Shown here piece after piece: positions 13,340-57,862 of a DNA stretch of 64,000 nt (positions within the stretch are counted from its first letter, which is position 1; every line of letters begins with the position of its first letter). Under the pieces are notes generated by a model that made no database searches, was not told the DNA's origin, and saw nothing but the letters and a program-made list of their open reading frames with translations. This DNA is from Spironucleus salmonicida (lineage: Eukaryota), in NCBI RefSeq assembly GCF_000497125.1, contig NC_090602.1, forward strand, positions 1 through 64,000, given 5' to 3'. A program made the position numbers and the translations under genes.

Positions 13340-16300
13340 TCATGCTAATTCAAAAATTCGATCTTCAGTCCCGGATAAAAACCCAGAATAGCTTGTTTAC
13401 TAATCATCTTTGCTTATAATAATACCTTTCACACGATAATCAACAAAACTAACAATCAAATTTCGCCTGTTTTTGGCCAAAATTAACCACAAATAAATTC
13501 CTGAAGCACAAAGTATAAATATAACTAGAAAGCCTATTACAATCCCTAATTACTAGATTCCAACATTTCGTTTAATCTCATCTCCAAATACTGGGAAAAT
13601 TAAATGTTCCATATTATAAACCACTAATGTATCCTCACATAATCGTGTTCGTGCATTGAAGTAATCTGATCTACAGTCATTAATGCACTCATAAAAGAGC
13701 CCACTTGGACGAAGTGCGAACGTGCAATTGGTGCATAAATTAGGTTAATCTTCTTCCTAACTAATAAAAGAATCACATTCGCCACCTTGATATGGGTTTA
13801 GAACCATTGACGGTTTCGAAATACATTCGCGCATGCTTGTCACGAATTCAAGTTTTGAGCAGCAAATAATAATTGAACCCACACAAGCTGGAGCCAGAAT
13901 CTTGCGGTTTTATACCATTTTGAACTGCTGATTACTTGCCATTTCCACGCAAATTCCACGCTTAAAATCACCAACAAGAGGTTCCGGGCATGCAAAAACA
14001 CAACCAGAATTAGTTGCAAAGAGTCCATCCTCGCATGAAGGACACTGTGGTGTATTAGGAAATTGCCAAGATGCATTAGTCACTGTTGATGTCGGACATT
14101 CATTTTGCGCTAAGCAACTGAAATCCGCTAAAATTTGGATAGAGGCGCAAAGATTAGGAGCAAAATCAACACATATTGTACCTTTTAAGACAATAATTGG
14201 AGCATCTGGATAAAACTTTTATAAAGATTTGCAGAGATCAGTGCAACGTGGATTCTACGTATCTGGTAGATAAGTATAAGGGTATGATACCAAATTATTT
14301 ACACCACAGTTTGAATCGCAAAAAAAATCGTTTTCTGGAGATAAAAACCACACCTTGCAGGTTGGAGAGTTTAATGAAACACAAAAATTTGAGCTATTGA
14401 TAAACGTATCCTGTGGGCAATTATCCTGGCACTAAACATATATTAATATACTAATTTAATAAACAGGAATAAATCTCTAATTTTTGCAAGATTTTACACA
14501 TCTAAATTATGTTTTCTCATCAATAATAAAAAAAGGCGGTAAACACTCGTCTATCTAGACTTCGAAACATTTACATGACTCCCCAAAACAGTTTACTAGT
14601 TAGCAGGTCTTATTCTCACTATATATAACTTTTTGTATAGGCTTATTTACACATGTATTCTTATAAACGATTTAATCCTCATTACACTTTTCAGAACATA
14701 CCTTCAAGTCAACTCCATTTATAGTTTATTCTAAAACAAAATTATGGAAATCTTAACATGCTCTTTCACAGAAGTAACCATAATAGTTATTGACAACATA
14801 AGTATTAACCAAAAAACCACAAGAATTACTACAAATACTATTAAACATAATAAAATTTTCTTGGTCTACAAGACAAACATCAATACAAAAATTATCTTAA
14901 AATGCCTTTGGTGAACACGAATCAACACATAAACTTGCAGATTCGTTCAAAAAATTAGGGCAAGAATCTATACATTCTGTAATTGTAATAGGTTTTCCAT
15001 CAAGAAATGTAAGAGTTATAATCTAACTGTACTAATTTTTACAATTCCCATCATTACAAATATATATAATATATCCTACTGAACTATCTTTAAAGAGCTA
15101 AAAAGTCATAGAATTACAAAATTGTGATATATTACTATATGCTAAACACTCAAAATATGATGTTGAAAATAGGTCACATTTAATACATTATTTCATATTA
15201 TCTCTAACTTTAACGTAAGTAAAAGGATTAAAACTACAGTTTTCTGTACATTAACCTTGAATATTGAATGGTAAAGAATTTACATTTAATTAGTCAAAAA
15301 TATAGTAAGGTTAATCGTAAATAAAGAATGGACATATCCATCTACAATGAATATCATTGATTAAATACATCATTTAACTACATTTAGAAGTACATTTGTT
15401 ATTTTCAATGATAAATGGACACTTGTCTATACAATTATTATATTAATCAATGAAAAATGTTTGGTTGCAAGATGACTGACAAATATTAGTTTAGTTAACT
15501 TGGTTCATTTTACATGATGGACTACATAATCTATAAGATCTATCAGATAGTGCTAAATAATTAAAAGGACATTCTAATTAACATTTTTGGTTTAAATTCC
15601 ATGTTGGAGCAGGGCAAAATACTAAAGTATAATTTTGATCAATCCTTTGCTCTTTATCTTTAAGACATGTCATATCCGCATAATTTAAGTAGAACCCTTC
15701 CTTGCAGATAGGAAGGCACACTTTTTATTTGCAAGTAACATCACATTCATTAGTCGCTATATTAAAACCACCATAAACACATGGTAAACAAGAATTTTTA
15801 TACCTTACTGTATTTTCACAAACTTTAACACATTATCCCGCCTATAAATATTATCCAGGCACGCAATCAACAAAAACATTATTTACATCGCAGGATTTTC
15901 CATTTTATATATAACCAACAGGGCATTGAGTAACACACTAATTATTAAGTTGCAAACAAGTGATAATACATGTTTCTCCTTACTTCTCAAATCCAATAGG
16001 GCAATTTAATATGCATTTCCCTTCATAAATAAAACCTTGACAAACACAGATTCTACTAATAGACTTATAATTTATTGGGCAATTTAGGAGACAATATTTA
16101 GCAACTATTCCTTGGTAGACACTATACCCTGAAGGACAGCTATTAACGCATTACATTCCAAAATATATTTAATTATAGTCTGGATTGCAGCTAGTGTTCA
16201 AAGTTCTATCATGGCATGACGCCCCAACACATAATTGTGTCATTTTACCATTATTTGAAATACAAAACTAATTTGGCATATCATAACATGGAATATAGCT

Positions 16301-19117
16301 CCCATTAATATACCAAGACGCATTTAATGCGTTTCTTACCTATTTCTCAAAAATAATAATGTCTTATCCTTATTGGTAAACTAATGTTAACTCAAATTTA
16401 TCATAAAGCTTGATAGTTGTAATATTAAGTTTAGTTATATCTTAAATATAATCAGTAAGCTAAATTAATCCGATAATAGACTATAATTGAGGATAGTCCT
16501 CTGAATTTTCATTTAAAGTTAATGTAGAGGATACTTAAACTTAAGAGTTATGAGAAAAAATAGATAATGCAGAAACTTTATAATTACCGCTAATATTAAT
16601 ATTTCCTGAGATATATATTTTTTTGAGCGTTGAATTAATTAATTGACTAAATAAAGCAATATTAATGCTCTAACAACCAGTAGTATCTAAATTACTGATA
16701 TTTAATATGAAAATTATATTTTCTATACTAGAATTAACCAAATCTATACCTGAAAAATTGCAGTATATACCTTATTATTTTTTAGTAAGACTTAATACAT
16801 TAATAATCTATGAATTAAAATTAAAATGTATATTTTCTGCAGTACAAAATTAATTTAATAAAGGTGTAAACAACTACATGCATCCTTGTGATTTTTTATT
16901 ATGAAAATAATTTTCAAAATCTTACGTTTATAACTCACATATACCATTGTGTTACGCAACACATGAATCTGTGCACTAACCATTTTTCATAATTAAATTA
17001 CATGAAGATGTACAAACTTGGAATTAATCATGATTAGAAGGACATATCTCTAAACAACTAAATTATCCATTTTCATAATTTATAAACTACGAACATAACG
17101 GCTAACAAAAATCCATTGTTATATTTAAAAATGTATTTAAAGGACACTTATATACACATTCTCTCGTTTATAGTACATAATACGTATCACATTTAATAAT
17201 AACTTAACCAAATATTGTATCCAGTCGTGCCTAATAAAACTATCCTCCAGATAGTGATTAGCTGCAATTTAACTATCCATTCACTAAATTATTCATAAAT
17301 TCACAAGAATCCATACATTCATAAGCATTTAATTGAGAATTTAAAGTAATAGCTTTAAACTTACTACACTAATTATTATCAATACAAATTTTCTAAGAAA
17401 TTGCATTTAACTCATATTTTCCAAAAGTACAATTATCTACGCACTAACTATTATTTAAAAATTGATTTTTACTACAACTATCTACGCAAAATATGCCAGA
17501 TTTATAAATAGGACAAGTTTTAACACATCTATCTCCAAGTAAAAATCTGTCACCATTGCAGTGAGTAACACACTAAATTTAACCAGAATCTAGTTTAATC
17601 TGACTTTAACATTCATCACACTTTGAGATACAGTTTGTGCTATTTTCTGATAAAATGGAGCATAGTTATGTACATTTTGATTAAATTGGATCAAAAAGTC
17701 TACATTAGACGCATTAAAAACTAATAATTTCATATCCAATATTACAATTATTGATACAAATTGAGTCTTAATAAACACCAGTTAAGCACGGTGTCTACCA
17801 GATATTATGTATCGCTAAAAAGAAGCTTATTGGAGGTGAATTTATACACAGCCCGCTGTATCCAGCAAATTCCGTGGGACATACCAAAAAGCATTGTTTT
17901 TAATGCAAAAATTCGTTTAAATTACATTTTTCTTTCCATATTCCATTAGAAATGACTTTATTTCCATTTAAATTTGTGCAGACAAAATTAACACTGCCAA
18001 AATACAAATCACAAACCGGCTAGCAATAAATTTCCTGCAAAACAAAAGGTTGAGGACAAACTTAGACCCACTTATTATTGAACAAAAACAATCCAGCCTT
18101 TGGAGGATATGAAATGCAAATATTCGAATCTACATCTAATCCAAATTTATTAGAGCAGCTATCCATACAATGATTTCCTTGAATTACCTTCCCTAAATCA
18201 CACTTTTCCACCCATACAAAGTCTTAAATTAGTGAAAAACTTGCATTCGGAGAACTTGAGAAGCAGTAATTGTTATATAATGTAGCAAACCCAAACTCGC
18301 AGCTTTTAACGCATTTAACACCTTGAATAAAGCCAAAATCGACTCCACAGACAGTAACCCAAACATTTTCTTAGATAAAACCATCACCTGTCGTGCTACA
18401 GATTGTACCCCCGTTATCGCCAAAATCGCCAGAACATGCGTCAACGCAGAATTGACCCTATGACTTTCCAGGACAGCTTTCGACATAAAGTCCATCCAGG
18501 ACGAAATCGCTAGAAATAGTGCAAAACCCATCTGAATCTGCACCGATTTCGCATTTCTCTATGCAGAAGCTTCCCTTCCTAAAATGCGCACAGCCGGACT
18601 AGAACTGGCCGTCGATTCCAATCAAATTTCCAACACTGGAAACGCAACTTCCGCTGTAAGAATTTGTCATCTCGGGGCAACTTTTCACGCACGAAAAATT
18701 GAAGCGAAAACTCAAACTGTCGCAGGAATCTACGCAAACATCGCCGTTTTTGAACGCAGGAGCGCAGGAAACGCACTCGCTACCGACCAAAATGCGATTT
18801 GAGCTACACGTTGAAACGCAAAATTTGTAATCGCCGTCTTGCGAAAAAAACTGCGGACAGGCCTCGACTTTTGCGCCATTCAGCACGAACGCGCCCTTTG
18901 AAATTTAGCACGTGTGCGACACATTGATTTTCGGGAGGGTGCATGCTGGAACGCAGACGTTTTCATCTTTCAAGTCGCAGGACGTCTCGGGCTGGCAGTA
19001 AAAATTCAGAAAAGGAATTTGCCCAGCCGGACAAATGAGTTCACAGCCCGCATTCGTAAAAATGAGAGGTGGGTTGCAGCGGGGGCAAGAAAACATAGAC
19101 TGGAATATTAAGATCAT
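13340..19117 (-). CDS. Cysteine-rich membrane protein (CRMP/HCMP-like surface protein), about 1925 aa
   Basis: Starts MILIFQSMFSCPRC and carries dozens of CxxxC/CxxC repeats. A non-Cys central domain lies at about 16300-16900. C-terminal TM helix LGIVIGFLVIFILCASGIYLWLIL, short tail, TGA at 13340. Start and stop are in frame; the interior was only spot-checked. Confidence 0.85.
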
Positions 19118-22100
19118 TTTGGAGGGACAAAGTAAGCTAGATAATAAAATAATAAGTTATTGAAAATTTGCAAAAGTGAATTATATGATAATATACTATG
19201 AATATATATTTATGATTTTCAGTTTGTTTAGTAATTCTGTAATTAATATAAATAGTGTAGTTAAAGTTTTAGAAAATGTGATCTGTACAAAAAAAATAGT
19301 TATTCTATAATGGTAGAATAGTCAATAAGTTTGTTTTGATTCAAAGTTAAAAGTTGATTTAACTCAGTAAAATAGTATAATATCGGTCCTTATATTTGTT
19401 GAGAAGAATTAATTGTATTGGCAATGATATAAACACATTTATCATGTTAATTAATATAAAATTTATCGAAAGAAGCCAATATATTCTGAATCGTTAAAAC
19501 AAATATTTGATAAAATAACAAGACATTTTAATAAAATTTAATGCTACCTACACTCAATTATCTAATTATTTTATTAAATTACGAGTATTATGAATAAATT
19601 TTAATACAACCAATATTACAGAATTCAGATCATAAGCCACTAATAATTATTAATCATATAATGTAGAGCATCTACATTATTATTGTTATAAGTGAAACAC
19701 ATAAATCTATAATTTTCCATGATTCTGTATTCCTGGATAAAGATAGAAGATTAAGTAATAATTTTCACCAATAATTAATTAAATACAAGTTTTCCTTTAA
19801 CTCCATTTATGTTATATAAATTTACATCTTAATTTATCAATTATTGAAAAGTATATTGAGAAACTCAAGTAGTCCTGGATATGTACAAGATTATGACGAT
19901 AGGTATATATGTCTAATCTTTAATACATTTGTATTTTAATAAACAGAATACCCAAATGAAGATACTTATTAAATTGAACCATCCACTATCAGTAGTAACT
20001 GTTTTTTCCACTATGCTAAAACTAGTGGTTGTTGAATTATGTTTTATAACCTCAATGTTTAAAATCTATGCAGATTCATCTAATAATAACGCTATTAGGT
20101 TAAATTAAAGTATTATATAGCTAAAAATAACAGTAGAAGCAAAATCAATGGCAGTTTTATATGTTTCTATTATTATACAATATCTCATGTTATGTTGCTA
20201 ATATCCATTGGTAGTAAATATGGTATAACATATTAACTTCTATCATCGCTTAGATCTAAAGATATAATATTTCTATTAAAATTAAATCTTATATTGCTAT
20301 GAATAAAATCATGTAATGAATTATAGTATAGCTCCTATGTTATACTTTAACATTTAAAATCATCCATAGAATAATACAGATACTACAAATGTTCTGATTA
20401 ACTTTAAGCAAAAATATACTTATATAATCTTCAATAATATTAGAACCCTTGTCGCAATAGAAATATTGATTCTTAGTATTTTAAGAAAAATAAAACTAGT
20501 GCGAATAATGAATATGGTGTATTGTCCATTTAACAACTTTAATTTGAGTATATAGCATTGTAAAGTCTGTTTCAATTATAGATAGCTTATATTCGTTGTG
20601 ATGGTCCCATTTTCTACTTAAGCTCTATGTTACAACAAAAAATACGGTTTTACATAATCTAATTATGTGACGTTATTCTAACTTGTTTGAGCAGATTGAC
20701 ATATCCTTTTCTATTATAATATATTTAAGCCTATTATTTCTAGCTTACTAACAAAAACTTATAATAAAATTATTGGATATACTACAAATATTTTTAATAT
20801 TTAACAACATAAATAATACTATCAGCATCCCAAATTATACCTTATACGTTATGTTAGATGTTGTATAGAGGTAGTATATTTTATGGGATCATAATATTAT
20901 TTAATTCTATTATGATAACAAGTTATAAACATAATTTTATATTATGAGTATATATCATACCTATTTTGTCGCATAGCCCAGCCTAATTAAGCATATTAAA
21001 ACTTGGTTTTTAATTAAATCATTAATACACCAAAATACATATTCCATCTAGTTATAGCTGTTTAATTACACTATCTCTAATTTGAGCAGTACATTAAAAA
21101 TGGTTCGAATAGCTAGATATACTTCATTTTTAATGAAATTACAATCTTTAGAATTGTTGTTAACTCAAATTAAATTTAAAAGTCATTAGTAAAACGCAAG
21201 TTTAACTTATTAGATAAAATTGAAACAACTAAATATTATTATAGACAATAAAACAATACTTCACTGTATGCTAAAATTTTGATAGTACTATAAGTTAATT
21301 TTTGTTATTCTTAAATAATGTATCTATTATATAATTTCAAATTCAATTGTAATTACACATATGATACAGTTTATATAATTTAGTTATCTTTTCTTTTTTT
21401 GGAAAATCTATCAATACTATAAAATAATTTATTATTAAGCAAAAATAACTTTTTTTAACTGTTGAAACATCGTAAATTAATATTTTTTTCTAATATACGT
21501 TATTCTAACTTTAATACTGTTAAACCTCATATGTTCTACATTCATTTGTTAACTATTCTGGATAATAATTTGGTAATAGTTATCTACGGGCTAAATATGT
21601 ATGAATACCTTCGTATCCATACGTCAATCAGAAAATTTTACCAATATCATTAAATAAATCCGAAAAAATTATTTCTTTTATTTTTTGCAAAATTTTAACT
21701 CTATTTAACATTGTTTTAACTATATATAACTTACCTCGGTAATAAATACTAAAACACGTTTCAGCTATTTAATTATTGCATTAACAGCAAAGAGCTAATT
21801 TATTTTATAAAATATTGACATCTATCACGCGAAATTCATCTATAGTAATTCTAATTTGTTCATAAAAAATAAAATTGCAGAGATTGTATAATGTATAATG
21901 TGTAATGTTCGCATTATGTTTTTAATATTAAAAATAATATATTAATCACATATATCATTAAAAATTAATATTTTTTTTCATTGAGTAAGCTAATAGAAAG
22001 ACTGAATTGGTATTAGTATTAAGCACTAGCATTCATAGTTAATTAATGATAATCAAAATGTTTTGATTAAATGTCATGTTGTTAGAATCTAGAATTCACT

Positions 22101-34463: not shown

Positions 34464-36422
34464 TCACAATTTTGAAATAAAATCCATTTCTTTTTCATAC
34501 CATTATTAAATTTCCAGGACTCTTCTTCTGGTTCTTTCGAATTCACACTATTAGATCATTTTAATTGATGTCTCCACTAGGTCTTTTTAACTTGCAATAA
34601 GACCATCTTCTCTAACTTCTACCAGACCTTATTTATGCTCATGCGCATTCATTGCTGCAGTTGTAATTGATCCTTTATCTTTCAACAGATTTAGGACTTA
34701 TGGCGACATCTCAGCAGGTAAAAGATTTTAAACATCCTACTACTGTGATCCTGGCATTTAACCTTGATTTTAACTAGTTAAATCTACAGCGTCTGCAATA
34801 GTATCATCGTTCTAATCTTGATTTTAAATTTATTATTAAGATTCTTTCCAGAGTTTGAGTTCCAACGCCTTATTAAGTAGATCTTATACTTTTTCGTGAA
34901 GTTATAATAGAAGTGATTTGAATGACTAAAATCCTGCCTGAGCAACTTCGGCGGTTTTATTTTATATAGTAGTCAATGTATTTGTAAGGGTGTCTAGATT
35001 TTCTTAAATCTCATATTAAACTTCTGATTCTAAAGCATTTAACATCTTTTTGGCCTAATTGAGTATATTTAAAATAAAAGTTTTCTTTAAATTCTCTACT
35101 TAAGTATCACCAGCAGGTACATATTATGATTGATCAACTTTCTAATTTTTATCTAAATCACCTAACTATAGCGAAGACTCTAACTAATCAACCTAGTTAA
35201 TTAAATCATCAACCTCCTACTTTTCCTCATTTTCCTAAAATGATTACTCTTCTGCCTCCGCTTTTTACTCACCCACTAAATCCATTTCTTCTGCAACATT
35301 TTTTTACTTTCTTTATAATTCTCTGATTTCTCTTTGTGAAATTCTCATTTCCGCTTTTCCATTCAGAACAAAATCTTTACCTATGTAATAATCCGTAATA
35401 ATGCTTTTAGTTTAACCAATTAAGTCATCTAATACTATTTAGTAAAATTCTTCGAATTCGCAAATTTCTCCTTAGCGAATTATCCTTCTCCTCCTCATAA
35501 TCTTACTAAACTATCTCAATGTTGCAATTGCCTCTGTCCTAAACCATCCTACAGCCTCCATTTTAATCGCTGGTATTTAAAATATCTTCTCGTTTGCATC
35601 TCCTGTTAAAATATCAGTGTCAACCAAAGTATCAAAACCCAAGCAATCTGATGCTGCATCAATTCTAATTTATTTCGTTTTAACTATAGCTTGCTATACA
35701 GCCTTTATTTCCAGTTGATTTTTCTCTTCAAGTGTTATGAGCTCGGTTTTATATGCATCTGTTGCCTTCTATCGCTCATCTGGAAGAATGACAATAAAGT
35801 CTAAATATTTTAAGGAAGGTAAGTATGCCACAGTTTCTTTTCTATAAATTGAAAGGTTTACTTTTGATTCTTTCGAAAATTCATTATTAGATAAAACTAA
35901 AATTCTTAGTTATTTAAATGTTTATAGTATTTTAATAGTATCTTTTAGAGGACCTGGTAGGGAATTATTAGCTAGATTAATTGATTACAGTGAATGAGAC
36001 GACTATGCTAATCCAGTGAGTCCTTTATAATTATCTTACAGTTTTAATAAACCGCTAATATTAGTAATTTAATTGTTATTTGCAATTAAGTCTGTTAGCT
36101 TATTTAACTTATCAATTCCATCTAATGAAGAAAGTTTATTAAAAGAAACATCTAGAACCTCTAAATTTATTAACTAGTCTAAACCAGTGAGAATCTCAAT
36201 TGAATTATTTGTGAGAACTAATTTTGATAACTATATAAAATCATTAATGTTGGAGATTGTACAAATATTATAATTAGGTAGTAGAAGTGTCCTTATTTAA
36301 GGAAAATCATCTTCTGTATAATTATTTCTAGAATCTGCAATTAGAAGAGCCTTTATTATAAGATCTGAAGTAAGCATCTGGTAGTCCTTATGGAACCCTG
36401 GAAGAGTTGATAGATCAGTCAT
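34464..36422 (-). CDS. DRC3: Leucine-rich-repeat plus coiled-coil protein, dynein regulatory complex subunit 3-like (652 aa)
   Basis: SDS22-type LRRs (LEVLDVSFNKL), LRR cap VAYLPSLKYLD, and C-terminal KDKGSITTAAMNAHEH...REDGL...ERTRRRVLEI resembling DRC3/LRRC48. Confidence 0.75.
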
Positions 36423-36479
36423 TAAGAATTTGCGGAATTAATAATATACTATTATATATATTATTATAAACTTTTGATA

Positions 36480-36734
36480 ATGACCGAATAAAAAAGAACA
36501 GGCCAACCTAAGTTAATTGATATACACTCTCTCTAAGCGGTATCATTTTTAACTGATAGCTCTATAGTTTTCGATCCCGAATCTATAGATCTGCTCAATA
36601 GTTATACATATAATTATATGGATTTAATTTTATCAAAAGCTGAGTAATTTATAGATCCCCAGACAAGGGTTTTAACTGAAGACATATTGAGTAAAGTTAT
36701 GAATATTCTGAATATTAGTAAGGAAATTTAATGA
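36480..36734 (+). CDS. Small putative histone-fold protein (84 aa)
   Basis: ATG 36480 to TGA 36734. DPESIDLLNSYTYNYMDLILSKAEQF...RVLTEDILSKVM resembles the alpha2-L2-alpha3 part of a histone fold. Confidence 0.55.
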
Positions 36735-37759
36735 ACATATTTCTTTTTTATATATTTGTGGTTACCAATTGTTATCAATATTGGTAAAAAAATGATTACT
36801 TATATTAAAACAGATGAAGTCATTCTAAAATAAATATTAGTAAACCTTTGTAGTTTGGTGATTGTAGGGTTGATTCCTCTTTTTGGCATATGATCTTACA
36901 TGGACAATAATGTATAATCTAGTAAGATGTGAGTCTTTTATTTCTAAAAAATTATCTGACTCACCATATGCTTTTACACATAATAATATTTATTCATATA
37001 TACTAATACTTAAAAAATATATTTATTTAAATTATCATGTAACAATAATTTATTCTACTCTATTGTATTAGGACTATGATCTATTAACGTTATTTATAAG
37101 TTAAAAGTTATTAGAACTAGTTTATTGATTATATTAGTATATTTAAAAAACTATGTCTATTTATAAATATTTAGCTAATTCAACTGTAGTACTTAAAGTA
37201 GTGGTCACATGCAATTGTTTTAATTGGATATTACATTAAATAATTTAATGTTAAATCTTAATCATAAAAATATATGTAATAGGAGCTAAGAAATAAAAAT
37301 AGTTACTATCATAAACTTTTTGTTTTTATTTTAGGAAATTATTTGATACTATAACTCCATTTTTAATTATAACACAATGAAATACAATTTGATATCGAAA
37401 ACTCAGTCTTATCATGTTTATTCATTCTCTGATTAATAAAAAAACATTCTATTAACCATATAAATTAAAACATCTGGCATAAGTTAATTGCAATTACTGT
37501 CAATGATAAAAATAATATTTTACTCAAAAGTATCATAAAGAGTAAGAAAAGTATATATAACCGAAATAATTTGCTTATTATAAGTTTAATACTCATTAAA
37601 ATCAGAGTAATTTTAATTGTAAGAGCAAATACAATTTAATATAAGCTAAATTCTGTAATAAATTAAAATATACTTTATATTATAAAATCAATATATGTAT
37701 TTTTAACATATCATCTATATCTACAGATATTATTATATAATAATTTTTTTAATAAATAA

Positions 37760-38164
37760 ATGCTGACGGATACCATCTTTCTTGAATAATGTAAGCAACA
37801 CTTTAATCTAGATGAATATCTAAGTCTCACTGAACAAAGTAAATTAAACTGGCGATTCACGAATCTTCCTAATATGGATTATAATCAATTGATGGCATTT
37901 TTTGAATATTGCATTGAACCTGAAGAAATTAGGAATGGCTACATCTACAATATCGAAGGAGATTTTAAGGAAGCTGAATTACGCTAATTATAACTATCAG
38001 AAGAACTTGATTAAATCACACAATAATAACTGAAATTACAATAATAACTTGCTAAAAAAGAATAAGAATATAAAAATTTTTAATAAAAACAACATAATTT
38101 AGACACCACATGGAAGTTAGAGTAGGAAGTAGATAAAGATGCATTCGACGAGCTCATGGAGTGA
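37760..38164 (+). CDS. Hypothetical coiled-coil protein (134 aa)
   Basis: Open under code 6, Q/E/K-rich heptads, stop GAGTGA. Confidence 0.7.
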
Positions 38165-38975
38165 TCAAGTTTATCCAGCCTGTCCTGTTCAGTTCTATTT
38201 ATACACGTTCGAAAGCTATAAGCAATTAGTTATCTTATAGTTAAATAGAGGAAAACTTTAATATTTTAATATATTCTAATATCTATTTTTCTAATATAAC
38301 ATACAAGTCTAAAATAATATTAATTTATTAACGGAAATGTTCTACAAATGAACGTTCAGAATAAATCGATGACAAATTAGTTCGTGCTATTATACCTGCA
38401 CGCTTATGGCAGCTAATAACTCTCGGAATTTTTAAATTGTTAAAGCTACTATGAATACTTAGTATACCAGCCATATTTGCTGGGTAAAAATCAAAAATTT
38501 TATCCAAAATACACAAACACTATTAACGCATACATGGTATCTTTAAGATTTACGTTTTCAATAGGTTGCATTAAAGCCATTTTTTATGATTTACAAGCCG
38601 GATATTTTTGGTAGCTATAAAGTCATTTTGACGAAAGTAATTAATTTCAGATAACTGAAACTCTCGCATTTACTTTAATTATTTTCTACCTTCTGCAAGT
38701 TATTGCTTAAGCTAAAAGTTGGTAGACTATTACATTAATACAATAGGAATTTTTTCAAATTCTTAACATGCTTCAGGATATGTTAAAATAAGCTTTAGAA
38801 GCCAATTTGCATTAACTGTTAAGTCAAAATTATGAACTAAAAAGTTGAGCTTTTGTGCAAAAATCAAAGAGTTAAACTGTGATTTACATATAAACTGCTA
38901 TAATTTAAAAGTATTAACATAGGTGAGAGGTATGTTTTCCATTAAGGAAATATATGCTGATTTTAGCCATGACAT
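38154..38975 (-). CDS. Hypothetical protein (273 aa), head-to-head with the TERT-like gene
   Basis: ATG 38975 (MSWLKSAYISL...) to TGA 38154; the track ORF 38328-38516 is in frame. Its 3' end overlaps the convergent gene by 11 bp. Confidence 0.7.
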
Positions 38976-39014
38976 GGAATATAATTATTTAATATATAAT
39001 ATAATAAATTAAAA

Positions 39015-40685
39015 ATGAGAGTTAAATTGAATTATTTTTTTCCCTTTTTCGAAGCAAATATTTTAATTAATTCTGATGATTTATGGTAAATTAAATTAAT
39101 ATCTAATTAAAATTTGCAATCTTGTAAAAATTTATCCTATAGTTAATTTTTGATTAATTCTGCGTTAAATAATCCACTAAACTGTTTATTCAATTATATT
39201 AATCCAAAAACTATAAATTATTTAGAATAATCAGGTCATATTCTATTCACACCACAATTCATACGGTTTTTTCACCTATATGGGTAGTAGTTATAGAATT
39301 TACTTAGTTCTAGATTATATCTACTTAAGTCAAAGATTTACCAATTCACAGGACGTATTGATTTTACTATTTAGCATAATATTAAGAAGCATGTTGCTTC
39401 CTTAATAAATAAATAGTAATCGATTACCGTTTAAGGTCAATTTAAAAAAATTAAGAGGCACGTTATTCATCGAATCAAATTATTTTAAGTTTTGCTAGAT
39501 AATTAAAAGTTGATAATAGAATAAAGAGTTATCTAATAAATATTGCATAAATTTTTTTATCCTGTATTAGGCAATTTTTAGAAAATAAATTTTAAGTAAC
39601 TAATCAAAAAATTTGTTTTCAATCAAGAATTAGATAAAGTAGAGAATGAAATTGTCACTGAGATTATTGCTCCTTTAATGTCATAATATTTACTATTCTC
39701 TTAAGATATGTATATTTAGCGTAAATTGGTTTCCCATTCTAGTTTAAAAATTTATTCAGAGTAAATATCCACATCGAGCTATATTTAGTCAGTTTTAATT
39801 CCTATGCCAAAACGAAACCAACAAGTTAGACCACTAATTATGTCATATGACTAGGATTCTATATTACCTATTATAAGATATATCTTTTAGGATAAAAATT
39901 TTTCCACTGTTAAATAATGTTTAGATGATATAAATTCAGGAAAATATACAGATGTTCTCAATGCATTTAATTTGGTTAATCAATAAGAAATATATTAACT
40001 TGTTATCAATAAAATTAAAAGCTTTCCTGAGTATTTTTAAACTATAAATTGGATAAAAATTTAAGATATTATGTATCCTCAAAAAATTACTCTAATCAAA
40101 AACATAGATCTTCAAAGATTAGTAAAAGAACACATTTTAAATTTTAAGTTTTTTGATATTGTATCGTGTACAAAATTTCGATTAATTCAAGGTATTCCAT
40201 AAGGCGCCCCCCTCTCTCCATTTTTATTTTTAGTTTGGATGGATTATAAAACTACTAAATCTCTAATTTCTTTTGTAAAACTAAACAATAGAAGCATAAT
40301 TGTTAGAAGATATGTTGACAATATTGTTTCATCCGAATAATTTACGATTTCTGGTGTCGATACAAGATAAACATAAGATTTTTGTGGTCATTACGATAAT
40401 TTTTATCAAGAAATTTTATTTCACTAGGAATTTACTGAAAAGAAAATTTTGATGAAACTAAAAATTATTTAAAAGCTAGATATTGGGCATTTGGAAAAAT
40501 TGGGTTATAAATATTTATTATTAAGGTTAGCAAAATGCAAGCAAATAAGTATTTTTAATAAAAAGCTTATTGCAATTTAAGGTATATTATCTAAATAGTT
40601 TCCATAGTACTTCTTGTTTATTTATGGTATTTTTATGTAATCTTAAATGAATTATTATCATAACAATTTTATCATAAGTAAGTGA
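39015..40685 (+). CDS. TERT: Telomerase reverse transcriptase-like protein, minimal (556 aa), motif C = YVDN
   Basis: Code-6 ORF with motifs in TERT order: GQ-like IYQFTG, QFP-like (LHKFFYPVLG...KQLIKKFV), degenerate T (EIIAPLMSQYLLFSQDMYIQRK), motifs 1/2 IPMPKRNQQVRPLI, A YTDVLNAFN, about 75-aa A-to-B' insertion, B' QGIPQGAPLSPFL, C RRYVDN, E FCG. Stop AAGTGA. Confidence 0.85.
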
Positions 40686-40800
40686 ATATTATAAATTATA
40701 AATTATAATAATTTCTAATACAATATTATTACTAATTATTACCTAAAAAACTGGTTCAAAAAATTTATTTATTACTTAAGTTTAATGTATGGAATTGATT

Positions 40801-40815
40801 TTCCCATTCCATCAA
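40801..40815 (+). promoter_or_regulatory. C-rich element just upstream of the start codon (example of a recurring motif)
   Basis: TTCCCATTCC precedes ATG 40816. Similar CCA(C/T)TT elements follow an AT-rich tract upstream of 42154, 44146, 47057 and 59515, and on - upstream of PKA, RPL18 and Raptor. Confidence 0.55.
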
Positions 40816-41178
40816 ATGGGTTGTGGCGCAACAAATTCACTCGATAACAAAAAACCTCTTGCTAAGTCTTTTGACTGCATGGTTGTCAACAAATCTGACA
40901 AGTTTCTCAATATTTCTTGCATAACTGGTTCAGGATCAACAATTGAAGCTCAGACTGACTCTGTTATGAAGAAATTACTAAAAGAGTTAACTAAACATAA
41001 TATGAAAGCTACTAACGTTGTTAAGCTTGAGTGTCTCCTTAGCGACTTGTAGAACTTTGCAAAGTTTAACGAAATTTATGGTGCTGCTTTAGATGGGTGG
41101 AAACCTGCTAGATTATGTGTTTAAGATAATTTAGCTTCTGGCATTCTTGTGTAACTTAACTGTATTGCTACTGATTGA
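40816..41178 (+). CDS. RidA/YjgF/UK114 family protein (120 aa) with N-terminal MGCG acylation motif
   Basis: TIEAQT, NVVKLECLLSDLQNFAKFNEIY, KPARLCV (family Arg retained) and LVQLNCIA. Confidence 0.85.
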
Positions 41179-52714: not shown

Positions 52715-55700
52715 TCACTTTAACTCTATAAATGCTATTAGACGTCTCCATCCTTTTCTGATTTTTACTTAGAACTAGGAGTTATTTACCTGTAACTGTT
52801 GTATTTTATCAGATCTCCATGTTCTGCTAACTTCATTAAACAGTTTTAATAACTATTCTTGAGAGACTTATATCTAATCAAAATTTACCATGTGGCATGT
52901 ATTTGTAATTAAGATTTTTATGAAATTTGTTGCATACTATCCTTTAAAGCTCTTCATGGACTTTGAAATCATTGTATTAATAATTAAATTAACTGCATCC
53001 ATCAATACTTAATCATCAACTATTGTATCTAGTTTGCACCGGGTACAATAGTTCTAAACTGATTACAATATTGTGGTGAAAAGATCATAGTAAAATGTAA
53101 TACAATCCTCATTATCCTACAAATATCTATTTACCATCTATGGAATGAAATGTTCACAAAACTAATGTATTTAACAATCTATCTTTAAAAGTGCTTAAAT
53201 TGTGCCAGTTAATAACTTGATATGAACTTTTGGCATCTATAATATATTTAATAAATAATCATGTGTGTTATTAATAAAATTAAGAAATATTCCTTATGAG
53301 TCATTTTTTATATTAAGTGTTTGATCTATGTAAATTTATGTATTTTAAATTTATTAATTTTGTAACGAATCATCAATCATGAATAAGGACTATAACAATG
53401 GGTTTGACTAAACATTTTTACTTATTTAAAATTACTACTTAAATCTAAACTTGCTATGCTTTTAATAAGAATATGCCTACTAGATTTTACTAAGTGCTTT
53501 ATTTAAGCAACTACAATAAAGAATGAATATGTCTTGTTCTGTTAAAATATCAATAGTATAACATTTTGACTAGAGATCATCAAAATATCCATTGAAAAAC
53601 AATAATGTCGCATGCGAATCTATATCAAATGAATTAAACATAAGTAAACATATAAAAATTTATAATTTAATTTAAATATCATCTATATAAATAGATATAT
53701 TTATTAGTTGTTTAGTAAGAATTAATGAATCTATAACTCTATCATTAAATTTTGGTTTATAATTTACTTTCAAAAGCATTTTAGAAAATTTTTAAATTAT
53801 ATTTTCGTATTATGTAGGTTCACATTACTGTAGTTACCGAATAGTAAAGCGAATTAATAGTTCTAAACCAAAAAGTTCAGATAAAATCACAATATACTCT
53901 GAATCTATATCATTTTCTTAGGTTTACATAAAATAATCATCATACTCATATATTTTTTATAACTATGACTTATGAATCTATGAAATATTAAATTTTTATC
54001 TCTATTCTCTATGCGAAAATAATGGATCATATTTGAAATTAATCAATGCAAAATCTTACTACACTTATTTTAAAGCATCATCAAAAATATCTACTATTGA
54101 AGTAGGATTTTACAAGATTGATAAATATAATAGTAATTCAAATTACTTAATATTCTTTATACTTATTGATCTCTTTTATGAGGCCAATCTATAGTGAACC
54201 TATAATAATTTGCATTACTAAAGTATGATATTATAACTATTTTCAAATTATTAGTTTATATTCTCTATTTACTCAGTAAAAACTTTCAGCATTTAATTAT
54301 CAAGATGGTCTTAATCGTCAATACAAAAAGATTATATTTTGTTGCTCACTAACTATGAAAATTAAAAAATTGATAATATCTTAAAAAAATTATAATTCTC
54401 TAGTATTAAAATAAAATCAATATGTTGGATTTAATCGAAGCAAACAAAAAGAATATTGCTTATAATAAGAAACTCAATTGCAGGCAGCTATTATAATAAA
54501 TCCAAAGATCTATAAGATTTTTTTGAAAACTTATTAACTAATGTAAGCTCGTGAAGCTAACTAGTATAACAACTAAAAAATACTTTGTACAATAGTTAAA
54601 ACTAAAAATATGCATCAAAATAGCTTTCATTGCTCTGTTTAAATAAATTAGATAAATTAGTATTTGGATACAATTATTAATAAATTAACATTTTATTAAT
54701 ATTATCTGATTACTGTTGTTTATTTATAACTTATTTTTGAATTTGCCATGTCTATGAAATTTAGTAACAAAATTCAATAAATTCTATATACAAATTTTTG
54801 TAATTGAAAGTATATTTTAATAAACTAACTGATTTTAATATTATATCAGAAAAAATCAAGACTAATGGAGAAACACACATTGATGTAGGCGCACTCTAAA
54901 CATTATCCATTAAATTAGGTATTATACCATGCTAAACTAAATTATTTGTATAGTTAATATCAAATATTGTGGATGATGATTCTAATTATAATTAAGCACA
55001 ATTGATAAATAAATACTGTTAATATCTAAAATCTAATAGAAAAGATTTGATAAAACCCTATGATTATAATATTTAAAATAATGACGTTTAATTATCTATA
55101 ACAATTAGATAACACAAATCATCATCTATACTTAAACTACTAAGAAGTAGCAAATAGCAGTGTCTTGTTAGATCCATGTCAGCTTTTTCATTTTAGCAAT
55201 ATAAATTACCACAAACTTCATTCGCTATGAATTTTAAATTAATATTAGAATTTTACCTAAAATCAACTGTCTAATCAATAAACTATAATTTTTTCTCTTT
55301 TCTAGGTTGGCATCCTTTAAAACAACTCAATAATAATTTAGCTAAAAAGATTTTACCCAATATATATGAATTTAGATTATAAAATACACCTGGCCATACA
55401 AACATTAAATCATACACGTTTATACTATAATTTGCTTGGGTTAATAGTACAAAATAAAAATTGTCAATAAGATTGCCTATTTCCTCGTTTTTAATATTTC
55501 TACCATTAATAAGTTATTATATTGATAAAACTACATAAAATAAATAAAAGGAAACATCAACATGTTATGGGAAATTACCAGTTAATAATTTTCTAACGAT
55601 AATTTCCTAATTAGCAGGATCTAAAATTACTTCTTTAAATATCCACTAAAAGCCAAATTAATATTATTAATACAATAAACTTCCTAATAGTGAACAAATA

Positions 55701-57862
55701 GCAAATATGATATCTTAATCATAAATCATCTCATTTTATTATTTTTATACATTATCTTTGGTCTAACCTAACAAAGCATCTGTTTAAACTAAGGAAGATA
55801 GACATTGCAGTTACTAAGAAAAATAAACAGCTGCATCTTCAATTAAGAATACAATTTTAGATATAACCTAACATAAATACACCAAAATTTACTAGCTAAT
55901 AACTGCGTTAATAAATTAATTACTAATAGTAAATTCTAAAGCACTATTTAAAATATTATAGTAACTAATATTACTTATCGAACTTAACCAGCTGATATCT
56001 TCTTTCGACATTAATTCTACATTTTTAAATTTTATAATATAATTAAAAATTTAGTTTAAGATTGAAGCTATTTTAATATTTGTATTGTTTTCTAAATTAG
56101 CAATTTAATTTATCGACAAGATACGAGTTAATACATCAATAAATTTAATGGTTAATAATTTTTAAATAAGAATTGATCCTGAGTATATTACAACTCTATT
56201 AAGTAATGATATAAGCATAATAAAACTCTAAGTTAATGTATCATAGTTAACATCGACATCACAATCATCTTTACTATAAAATGTTGTAAACCATTCTAAT
56301 ATTTCAAAAATAACTTTCCAAAAATCAAATGATACTAAAGATAAAGTTTTAAGAGTCTAAGGTTATTTCCTAAATCTATAAATCACAGATAAAGATGAAA
56401 TAAAGCCTGGGTGAGTAATTAAATTATAATATTATTAATATGTATTTAGATCTTCCACTGTAAATAAATTAAGTATCAAAATAAGAATTGAAGATGGCAA
56501 TTCTGATTTAGAGTAAAACTATATTACTTATCCATACTCAGGAAGTAGTTCATCCAAACTAATAATAAGTTTACAATATTCTAATTACTATTAAAGAGTA
56601 TTACCAAAAGATGTGGTCAGAATTTTATTTTCCAATTATTTTATTTTTTAACTGGAATTAACCTAATATGTAGTACCAGATGTTTTATTTTCTTATCGTT
56701 CATCTAATTCTTCCTTACTCTAATTACTATTAAATTTTGATACTAGCATAAGGCTATCTATATTTTATTCATTATAGCTGATTGAATCTGGTATATTAAA
56801 TTAGGATACATTTTTAAAAGCATTCGGAAGAGTAATCTTATGATGAAAAAGATAATCAACAAATACTAAATATTAATGAATGAAATTTTATAAATATTAC
56901 TTCGTTTCTGTTTAGAACTCCTATGATAAATATACATCATTCACTTTTTAAAGAAGCAAATTGAAAAAATTAGAAAAAATATCCTATTTATATAAGATAA
57001 AGGTAAAATCTTTTAGAAGCGATAATTATTTCATAATTAAACATGCAAGGCTATAAATTAAACATAGAACCTCTTCATATTATGTGTCAACTGAAAATCT
57101 AAGAGCAAATAGTAAGCATTCTAGAACATAATTTAATGATGTGTCTTATATATTATCTTATAATTCAACTCCAATATGTAATAAAATAATGAGATGCTAT
57201 AGGAACTGTATCAAAAATCCTAAATTTTCTTATTACAGTTAATTAAATGAATTGAAAACACCATTTATTAAAGTACTAGCATAAGACTTAAGATCTTAAT
57301 CTACAAGTTATTTCTCTAATAATATTTTAGCAGACTGTATCTTAAATTATAGCGAAGATATCTATAAAATTTCTATTAATACAATAGTTAGTTCTTCAGA
57401 AATGTAATTAATATTCTATGCAATGAACAATAAAATCTAAGCATAAGAATCTATAGAAAAATCTAGTTAGCTATCATCACTAAACATATCATCTAATATC
57501 GATTAACAATAGTACTAAATATTCTATGGTTGGTATTTCTGTATAACGTATATCTACGTATGAATCAAACTAAGTTAATCCTAAACTGTATATTGATTAA
57601 GGATCTACTCTTAGATTGTTCGATTTATGAGCTATGAAAAAATTGAATACGTAATTTATATATTTTTATTATCTGCTGCAATTTAGGGAAGCTACTTAAA
57701 ATCATAAATCTGGAATAATAATTTATCAAGAACTGACAGAGTATTAGAATCAAATTATTCAATAAACGTGGTACAAAGGTATTCTAAGTTTGTATTTATG
57801 GTATTTTTATCGAAAAAATTTGATATAATTTAAAGAGCTATCTCTTCAATTGAAGATGGCAT
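52715..57862 (-). CDS. Large hypothetical protein (1715 aa), likely alpha-solenoid
   Basis: Frame read through with no TGA found between ATG 57862 (MPSSIEEIALQII) and TGA 52715 (AAGTGA). L/I/F-rich helical composition; no family recognised. Confidence 0.8.

Follow-up and report, generated by a model that had tools for sequence, protein, structure and literature searches.

A highly diverged reverse transcriptase-like gene with a YVDN active site in Spironucleus salmonicida, and the tentative case for a reduced telomerase subunit

The locus and its reading frame

The first 64,000 nucleotides of contig NC_090602.1 of the diplomonad Spironucleus salmonicida (RefSeq assembly GCF_000497125.1; this whole stretch is called the window below) begin with a telomere and carry, 36.7 kb away from it, a gene for a protein related to reverse transcriptases (RTs). 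This RT-like gene is an open reading frame (ORF) read under genetic code 6, and the question considered here is whether its product may be a telomerase reverse transcriptase (TERT). The features concerned are as follows.

1 to 2290, minus strand: telomere, (TAGG)n on the minus strand and (TACC)n on the plus strand, about 579 units, 36.7 kb from the RT-like ORF
39015 to 40685, plus strand: RT-like ORF of 556 codons under code 6 (TGA = stop), encoding a diverged RT-family protein
39015 to 39797, plus strand: N-terminal extension, residues 1-261, with no recognisable domain, similar in length to a TERT RNA-binding domain; coding signal weak
39798 to 39848, plus strand: fingers motif 1/2, residues 262-278, IPMPKRNQQVRPLIMSY, with Lys266 and Arg272, read by eye
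39951 to 39971, plus strand: motif A, DVLNAFN, with Asp313 present and Asn319 in place of the Asp of the usual AFD or AYD; lies within the PADLOC RT match to residues 293-438
40188 to 40229, plus strand: motif B', QGIPQGAPLSPFLF, the only part aligned alike by TERT, non-long-terminal-repeat (non-LTR) and group-II-like profiles
40311 to 40322, plus strand: motif C, Tyr-Val-Asp435-Asn436, TAT GTT GAC AAT
40431 to 40508, plus strand: probable motif D (Lys476/477) and motif E (KLGY, residues 495-498), assigned by spacing and by eye, without statistics

Code 6 is correct for the DNA of the window, as the neighbouring genes read with TAA and TAG as Gln give strong Pfam matches (e.g., Rap_GAP at 6.8e-32 and PP2A-type HEAT repeats). 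An earlier description made from the letters of the stretch (the sequence-only reading) had reported the 556-codon ORF at 39015-40685, and translation with table 6 bore this out, with 41 in-frame TAA or TAG codons on the plus strand read as Gln. It had also described the gene as hidden by the code; the ORF is indeed not visible with table 11, but an identical 556-residue protein is already present in NCBI, UniRef and nr, and an older model is found in EukProt. This older model, of 293 residues, begins at Met264 (window position 39804), inside fingers motif 1 (IPMPK), while the 556-residue NCBI model has the whole motif together with the N-terminal extension. The annotation of the gene can therefore be improved.

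The frame of the ORF contains no TGA in 570 codons versus 7-13 in each of the other five frames; a Markov simulation gave a probability of 4e-4 for the absence of TGA, and about 0.1 such ORF is expected per window. Because TGA is the sole stop, long open frames are common, and the RT-like ORF is only the tenth longest in the window. A minus-strand gene of 1,746 codons contains a TGA-free shadow ORF of 557 codons (54741-56414, plus strand) whose codon score, 0.033, resembles that of the RT-like ORF, so that length alone proves nothing under code 6. Across 39615-40514 the frame of the RT-like ORF outscored the other five frames in codon usage in five of six segments, although its score was weak, and the GC content of the gene (0.233) was the lowest among eight genes compared. 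Since the frame is free of TGA and independent RT models match its product, the RT-like ORF is more than a chance frame, and the gene is real and RT-related.

Membership of the reverse transcriptase family

The RT models that recognise the protein cover its motifs A to C. PADLOC RT model PDLC01607 matches residues 293-438 (E 2e-6, 26.1 bits), and five further RT models also match. Pfam RVT_1 matches at E 0.002-0.0045 (17-18.3 bits, under the Pfam cut-off of 29.6), and TIGR04416, the group II intron/bacterial RT model, at E 0.003 (15-17 bits versus a cut-off of 300), there limited to motifs B-C and not full length. The controls were taken from 114 metagenome loci that had been picked by a motif B' pattern, and their B' scores are therefore biased. 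PDLC01607 and PDLC01136, the two PADLOC models that score highest with the RT-like protein, were among the three best in all six control TERTs (first and second in four of them) and were the best two also for the Penelope-like element (PLE) control and the non-LTR control; these matches thus indicate an RT, not which RT. Relatives were sought in the metagenome loci and by plasmid tblastn and none was found there, while a word-seeded search of 5.8 billion proteins, made with the whole protein and with residues 375-450, returned only the protein itself. The protein is an extremely diverged and shortened member of the RT family.

The sequence-only reading had described TERT motifs in order. Of these, 1/2, A, B' and C stood as generic RT motifs, as did a probable D and E, while the T motif and the RNA-binding domain gained no statistical support. 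FCG, which it had taken for motif E, was rejected, since it lies 21 residues after Asp435 and is too close; KLGY at residues 495-498 suits the usual spacing better. Only 58 residues follow this probable motif E, which indicates a very short thumb.

The active site

Codon by codon, Asp313 is GAT, Asn319 AAT, Asp435 GAC and Asn436 AAT (40320-40322), so that these four residues, and TAT GTT GAC AAT at 40311-40322, are confirmed as they had been given in the sequence-only reading. The RT catalytic set is incomplete: the Asp of motif A and the first Asp of motif C are kept, and Asn436 takes the place of the second. In TERT the catalytic triad consists of three Asp residues (PMC5855555).

The base at 40320, on which the Asn436 codon depends, was checked in the contigs of four runs, which all keep AAT and never show GAC GAT. 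The contig of DNA run X1 (57,969 bases, depth 211) spans the whole RT-like ORF, and a contig of DNA run X4 (depth 9.3) spans 39056-41100, both without a differing letter; the two runs are from one sample, which is possibly the source. Another study contributes two runs that are guessed to be RNA; their contigs, again with no differing letters, extend over 40051-40389 (depth 3.4) and 40130-40486 (depth 4.19). As these runs are known as contigs, their cover is no proof of transcription, and the parts of the ORF that they leave uncovered are uninformative. Because the AAT codon is identical in the contigs of all four runs, an assembly slip at Asn436 is very unlikely.

YVDN is found in Cer7-Cer12 of C. 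elegans according to the available text of PMC554778, and the change of YxDD to YVDN is given as a distinguishing feature of nematode belpaoviruses, intact elements included, in the accessible part of PMC9094657. As the motif occurs in intact nematode Bel/Pao elements, Asn436 need not kill an RT, and Asn at the second motif C position is rare, yet precedented in RTs that apparently work. The natural change of YxDD to YVDN is what the gene shares with the Bel/Pao group (Belpaoviridae: Cer7-Cer13, Atlas virus; excerpts of PMC554778 and PMC9094657). These are, however, LTR elements with Gag, protease, RNase H, integrase and Env, whereas the RT-like gene has none of these domains and no LTRs, and the shared YVDN is convergence, not kinship. 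The polymerases of non-segmented negative-strand viruses (RNA-dependent RNA polymerases with GDN) also have Asn after the catalytic Asp of motif C, as here, but they belong to a different polymerase class and use a different template, so that Bel/Pao YVDN is the nearer precedent. The sequence-only reading had named GDN of these virus enzymes as the natural case and so missed the closer one of the nematode Bel/Pao RTs.

A host gene rather than a mobile element

The contig of run X1 that holds the RT-like gene has a depth of 211 versus 153-172 for other contigs of the same run, which is ordinary, and no second copy of the gene was found within the 64-kb window. The spacers between the gene and its neighbours are tight (about 40 and 100 bases), and these neighbours include genes for a Rap-GAP, a leucine-rich repeat (LRR) protein, RidA and PP2A-A. 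Pfam detected no endonuclease, gag, integrase or RNase H domain in the RT-like protein, and no telomere repeats adjoin the ORF in the window. An element bounded by LTRs or other terminal repeats was rejected, as the flanks hold only chance AT-rich repeats and no LTR or terminal inverted repeat. From the ordinary depth, the absence of a paralogue in the window, of terminal repeats and of element domains, and the housekeeping neighbours, we conclude that the gene is real and belongs, as a single copy, to the Spironucleus-type diplomonad itself rather than to a mobile element.

The telomere

A telomere of about 2.3 kb had been noted in the sequence-only reading, and (TACC)n is present at 1-2290; the repeat agrees with the (TAGG)n published for Spironucleus salmonicida telomeres (available text of PMC9509377). 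The units comprise 487 CCTA, 27 CCCTA, 25 CCCCTA and a few with longer C-runs, and this variation of TAG2-4 on the G strand matches a templated enzyme slipping on a G run, as expected. Giardia TERT is described in the accessible text of PMC10999387 as an active protein of 960 residues with four domains and without a T motif. Judging from the slipping-type telomere, the (TAGG)n repeats and the active Giardia TERT, a telomerase is expected in this organism. Our literature search, which did not extend to supplements, found no publication describing a Spironucleus telomerase, and no telomerase RNA is known for diplomonads according to the part of PMC10999387 that is available.

Telomerase as a candidate function

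We put forward, as the likeliest specific explanation but tentatively and with real doubt, that the RT-like protein may be the reduced telomerase catalytic subunit (TERT) of its lineage. Like TERTs, it is encoded by a host gene present in one copy, its organism has short, G-rich telomere repeats, and an extension precedes motif 1 on the N-terminal side. By eye it shares with TERTs a PK...RP motif 1/2, DVxxAF-x-V, QGIPQG and R-Y-V-D, and its RVT_1 match starts at profile position 106, compared with 104-115 in eight control TERTs. It differs from them in the triad (D, D, N versus D, D, D), in the absence of motif 3 and in lacking a detected Telomerase_RBD, TERT_C or TEN domain. Short TERTs are known in insects and nematodes.

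Several results speak against a telomerase. Telomerase_RBD (PF12009), TERT_C (PF21399) and TEN_TERT gave no match at E<=10 with the whole protein or with pieces of it (including residues 1-264), whereas Telomerase_RBD was matched in all eight long control TERT ORFs tested (E 1.4e-6 to 7.1e-47). The control TERTs also matched RVT_1 at 2.5e-4 to 5.7e-14 and, in six of eight, TERT_C. The identification as a telomerase RT in the sequence-only reading thus holds for the RT family (PADLOC, RVT_1, TIGR04416) but is unsupported for TERT. A full TERT hidden Markov model (HMM) built from 11 sequences scored 4.7 bits, which equals the best of 2000 shuffles, and a TERT core HMM from 36 sequences scored 10.8 bits, with one of 2000 shuffles higher. 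A T-motif HMM from seven TERTs gave no signal, the RT-like protein ranking 718th of 1347. The distances between motifs are short as well: 41 residues from motif 2 to motif A, without a motif 3 (71-108 in six TERT ORFs); 83 from motif A to B' (117-194 in ten TERT ORFs, 94 in one TERT-like ORF and 59 in two non-LTR RTs); and 122 after motif C (164-439 in the TERTs measured). The Asp pair of motif C is invariant (D431, D432) in all eight aligned TERTs, versus Asn436 here, and mutation of either motif C Asp inactivates a retroviral RT (accessible part of PMC554778). Neither phmmer against 1.84 billion representative proteins, which returned only the protein itself and thus no relative and no TERT, nor phmmer against the PDB with the whole protein and three parts, which gave no match, brought support. 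The codon-usage score of the ORF, 0.024 per codon, is weakly positive and at the level of the shadow ORF; it falls below those of the eight long training ORFs (0.034-0.131, seven of the eight at least 0.074). Finally, other RT genes are annotated in the S. salmonicida genome (available text of PMC9509377).

Some related comparisons qualify this picture or are neutral. Small non-LTR, group-II-like and bacterial profiles gave 14.7, 9.1 and 2.9 bits, respectively, all resting on B'; the TERT profiles likewise aligned no part of the protein beyond B', and hhalign aligned only 17-38 columns at a probability of 8-59%. A segment at residues 217-237, IIAPLMSQYLLFSQD-MYIQRK, recalls by eye the T motif PL..FYxTE...YRK of control TERTs. 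A TERT N-terminus placed upstream in another frame was rejected, since the upstream ORFs in other frames contained no Telomerase_RBD, TERT_C or TEN_TERT. An insertion in the fingers (IFD) between motifs A and B' is named as a TERT feature (PMC5855555), and the RT-like protein, with 83 residues there, falls short of the TERT range. The proteins of the window are very diverged in general, with no Pfam match for three of its four giant ORFs, and because the proteome is so diverged and the Giardia TERT is active without a T motif, a missing domain match is weak evidence. A search with a TERT alignment had only fungal TERTs among the best 120 of 851 matches and is uninformative on a diplomonad TERT.

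Two compact TERT-like ORFs were seen among the metagenome loci. L113:2784-3935 (minus strand) has 94 residues between motifs A and B' and LSP in B', and L033:395-3151 (plus strand), whose frame is in pieces, lies on a 7-kb gut contig of 40% GC.

In the RT tree the RT-like protein forms the longest branch (3.56), without a resolved position and outside the sampled TERT clade; it adjoins L036, the sole PLE sampled, in a join flagged as long-branch. Approximately unbiased (AU) tests did not reject its placement with TERT as one clade (p 0.36), with non-LTR RTs (p 0.36) or with non-LTR and group-II-like RTs together (p 0.46). The sequence-only reading had named placement with Penelope or non-LTR RTs as an outcome that would speak against a telomerase; the tree with its AU tests, like the TERT profiles, hhalign and the T-motif HMM, does not separate TERT from non-LTR, group-II-like or Penelope-like RTs.

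If the protein is a telomerase, an RNA carrying a CCUA-type template would be bound by the N-terminal extension, while the palm would extend the chromosome ends by TAGG repeats; Asn436 would then coordinate metal A, either more weakly than Asp or as a substitute for it. Even slow synthesis could be enough, since few repeats would be needed per cell cycle. In its strongest form, the 556-residue protein would be the only telomerase catalytic subunit of Spironucleus-type diplomonads and the most reduced TERT known, keeping 2-kb (TAGG)n telomeres with an Asp-Asp-Asn palm; we consider this rather unlikely.

Alternative explanations

The protein could instead be a domesticated RT of Penelope-like, non-LTR or other retroelement ancestry, kept for nucleic-acid binding or for a weak, specialised polymerase activity, with a canonical TERT encoded elsewhere, and this explanation, though doubtful, has to be taken seriously. 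It would account for a frame that has been maintained open and for a protein that RT models match and TERT-specific domains do not, with motif spacings below the TERT range and Asn at two conserved Asp positions. Its B' carries LSP, as in the non-TERT RTs among the control loci, and the small non-LTR profile exceeds the TERT core profile (14.7 versus 10.8 bits), but all the profile scores rest on B', the very motif by which the control loci were selected. The AU tests allow both non-LTR placements (p 0.36, and p 0.46 with group-II-like RTs), and the published genome contains other annotated RT genes (PMC9509377, in its available text). The single copy and the absence of mobile-element remains argue against this explanation, as does the lack of any similarity to retroelement RTs among the 1.84 billion proteins searched, which included the organism's own NCBI proteins. 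Every eukaryote that uses telomerase has a TERT, while domesticated RT genes are rare, which likewise counts against this origin. Known cases are single-copy host genes such as the rvt genes and the RT-like domain of Prp8, which has lost catalytic Asp residues; their size and architecture are unlike those of the RT-like protein, to which no similarity was found in the protein libraries searched. A Penelope-like ancestor would fit the consensus of that group, which has an RYVD-type motif C and a GxPQGxPLSP-type motif B, both of which the RT-like protein resembles; it differs in having no GIY-YIG (L036 has one), in being single copy and in having no telomere repeats at its ends. Penelope-like element RTs are the sister group of TERT (accessible text of PMC8557442).

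It seems improbable to us that the gene is a decaying, non-functional relic, left by a retroelement or a one-time TERT, with Asn in place of Asp through G-to-A decay of AT-rich DNA. Its GC content is the lowest among the eight genes compared, and its codon score is no better than that of a shadow ORF; the 557-codon shadow ORF demonstrates that long TGA-free frames do arise in the window; no relatives were found; and the depth in the runs guessed to be RNA is 3-4 versus about 500 for the next gene. Eight TGA codons would nevertheless be expected by chance and none is present (P about 4e-4), and drift beyond recognition should have broken the frame, so that its openness speaks against a relic, as do the tight spacers of about 40 and 100 bases and the RT motifs that are still in order and scored by RT models. 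A catalytically dead TERT paralogue, acting as a scaffold beside an active TERT, would agree with an RT-family host gene whose palm is degenerate, but TERT-specific features were not detected and the window holds no second copy, and we regard it as highly improbable. An error of assembly or sequencing that turned Asp into Asn436 can be practically dismissed: both DNA runs (depths 211 and 9.3) show the same codon in their contigs, as do the two runs from the other study that are guessed to be RNA, and Asn319 is a second, independent Asp-to-Asn position.

Should the reduced TERT be the correct identification, the gene would offer a natural experiment on the D...DD metal-binding triad of RTs and on the minimal set of TERT domains, as well as a route to the diplomonad telomerase RNA through the RNA bound to the protein. 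If it proved to be the only telomerase subunit of the organism, the third carboxylate of the RT triad would be dispensable in a cellular telomerase. Without a telomerase function the interest would be moderate: the gene would then be one of the rare RT-like genes that have been domesticated as a single copy, here in the compact genome of a parasite.

Other loci and features of the window

The Penelope-like locus that adjoins the protein in the tree is L036:349-4152 (minus strand), a metagenome ORF of 1,268 residues with GIY-YIG at 271-349 and RVT_1 at 880-1105, the endonuclease thus lying on the N-terminal side. Directly downstream of the RT-like gene is the RidA/L-PSP gene (40789-41178, plus strand; Pfam 6.8e-13), for which the two runs guessed to be RNA give a depth of about 480-540, more than 100 times that of the RT-like ORF. 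Upstream, about 2.6 kb (36400-39000) are without a recognisable gene; a minus-strand ORF of 273 residues (38154-38975) in this interval has a weak codon signal and no Pfam match. Further Pfam matches in genes of the window read with code 6 are tRNA_SAD and Raptor_N. On the minus strand, 13343-19321 is a 1,993-codon, Cys-rich, repetitive ORF with a hydrophobic end and no Pfam match; cysteine-rich membrane proteins have been described for S. salmonicida (available text of PMC9509377), and this ORF looks alike.

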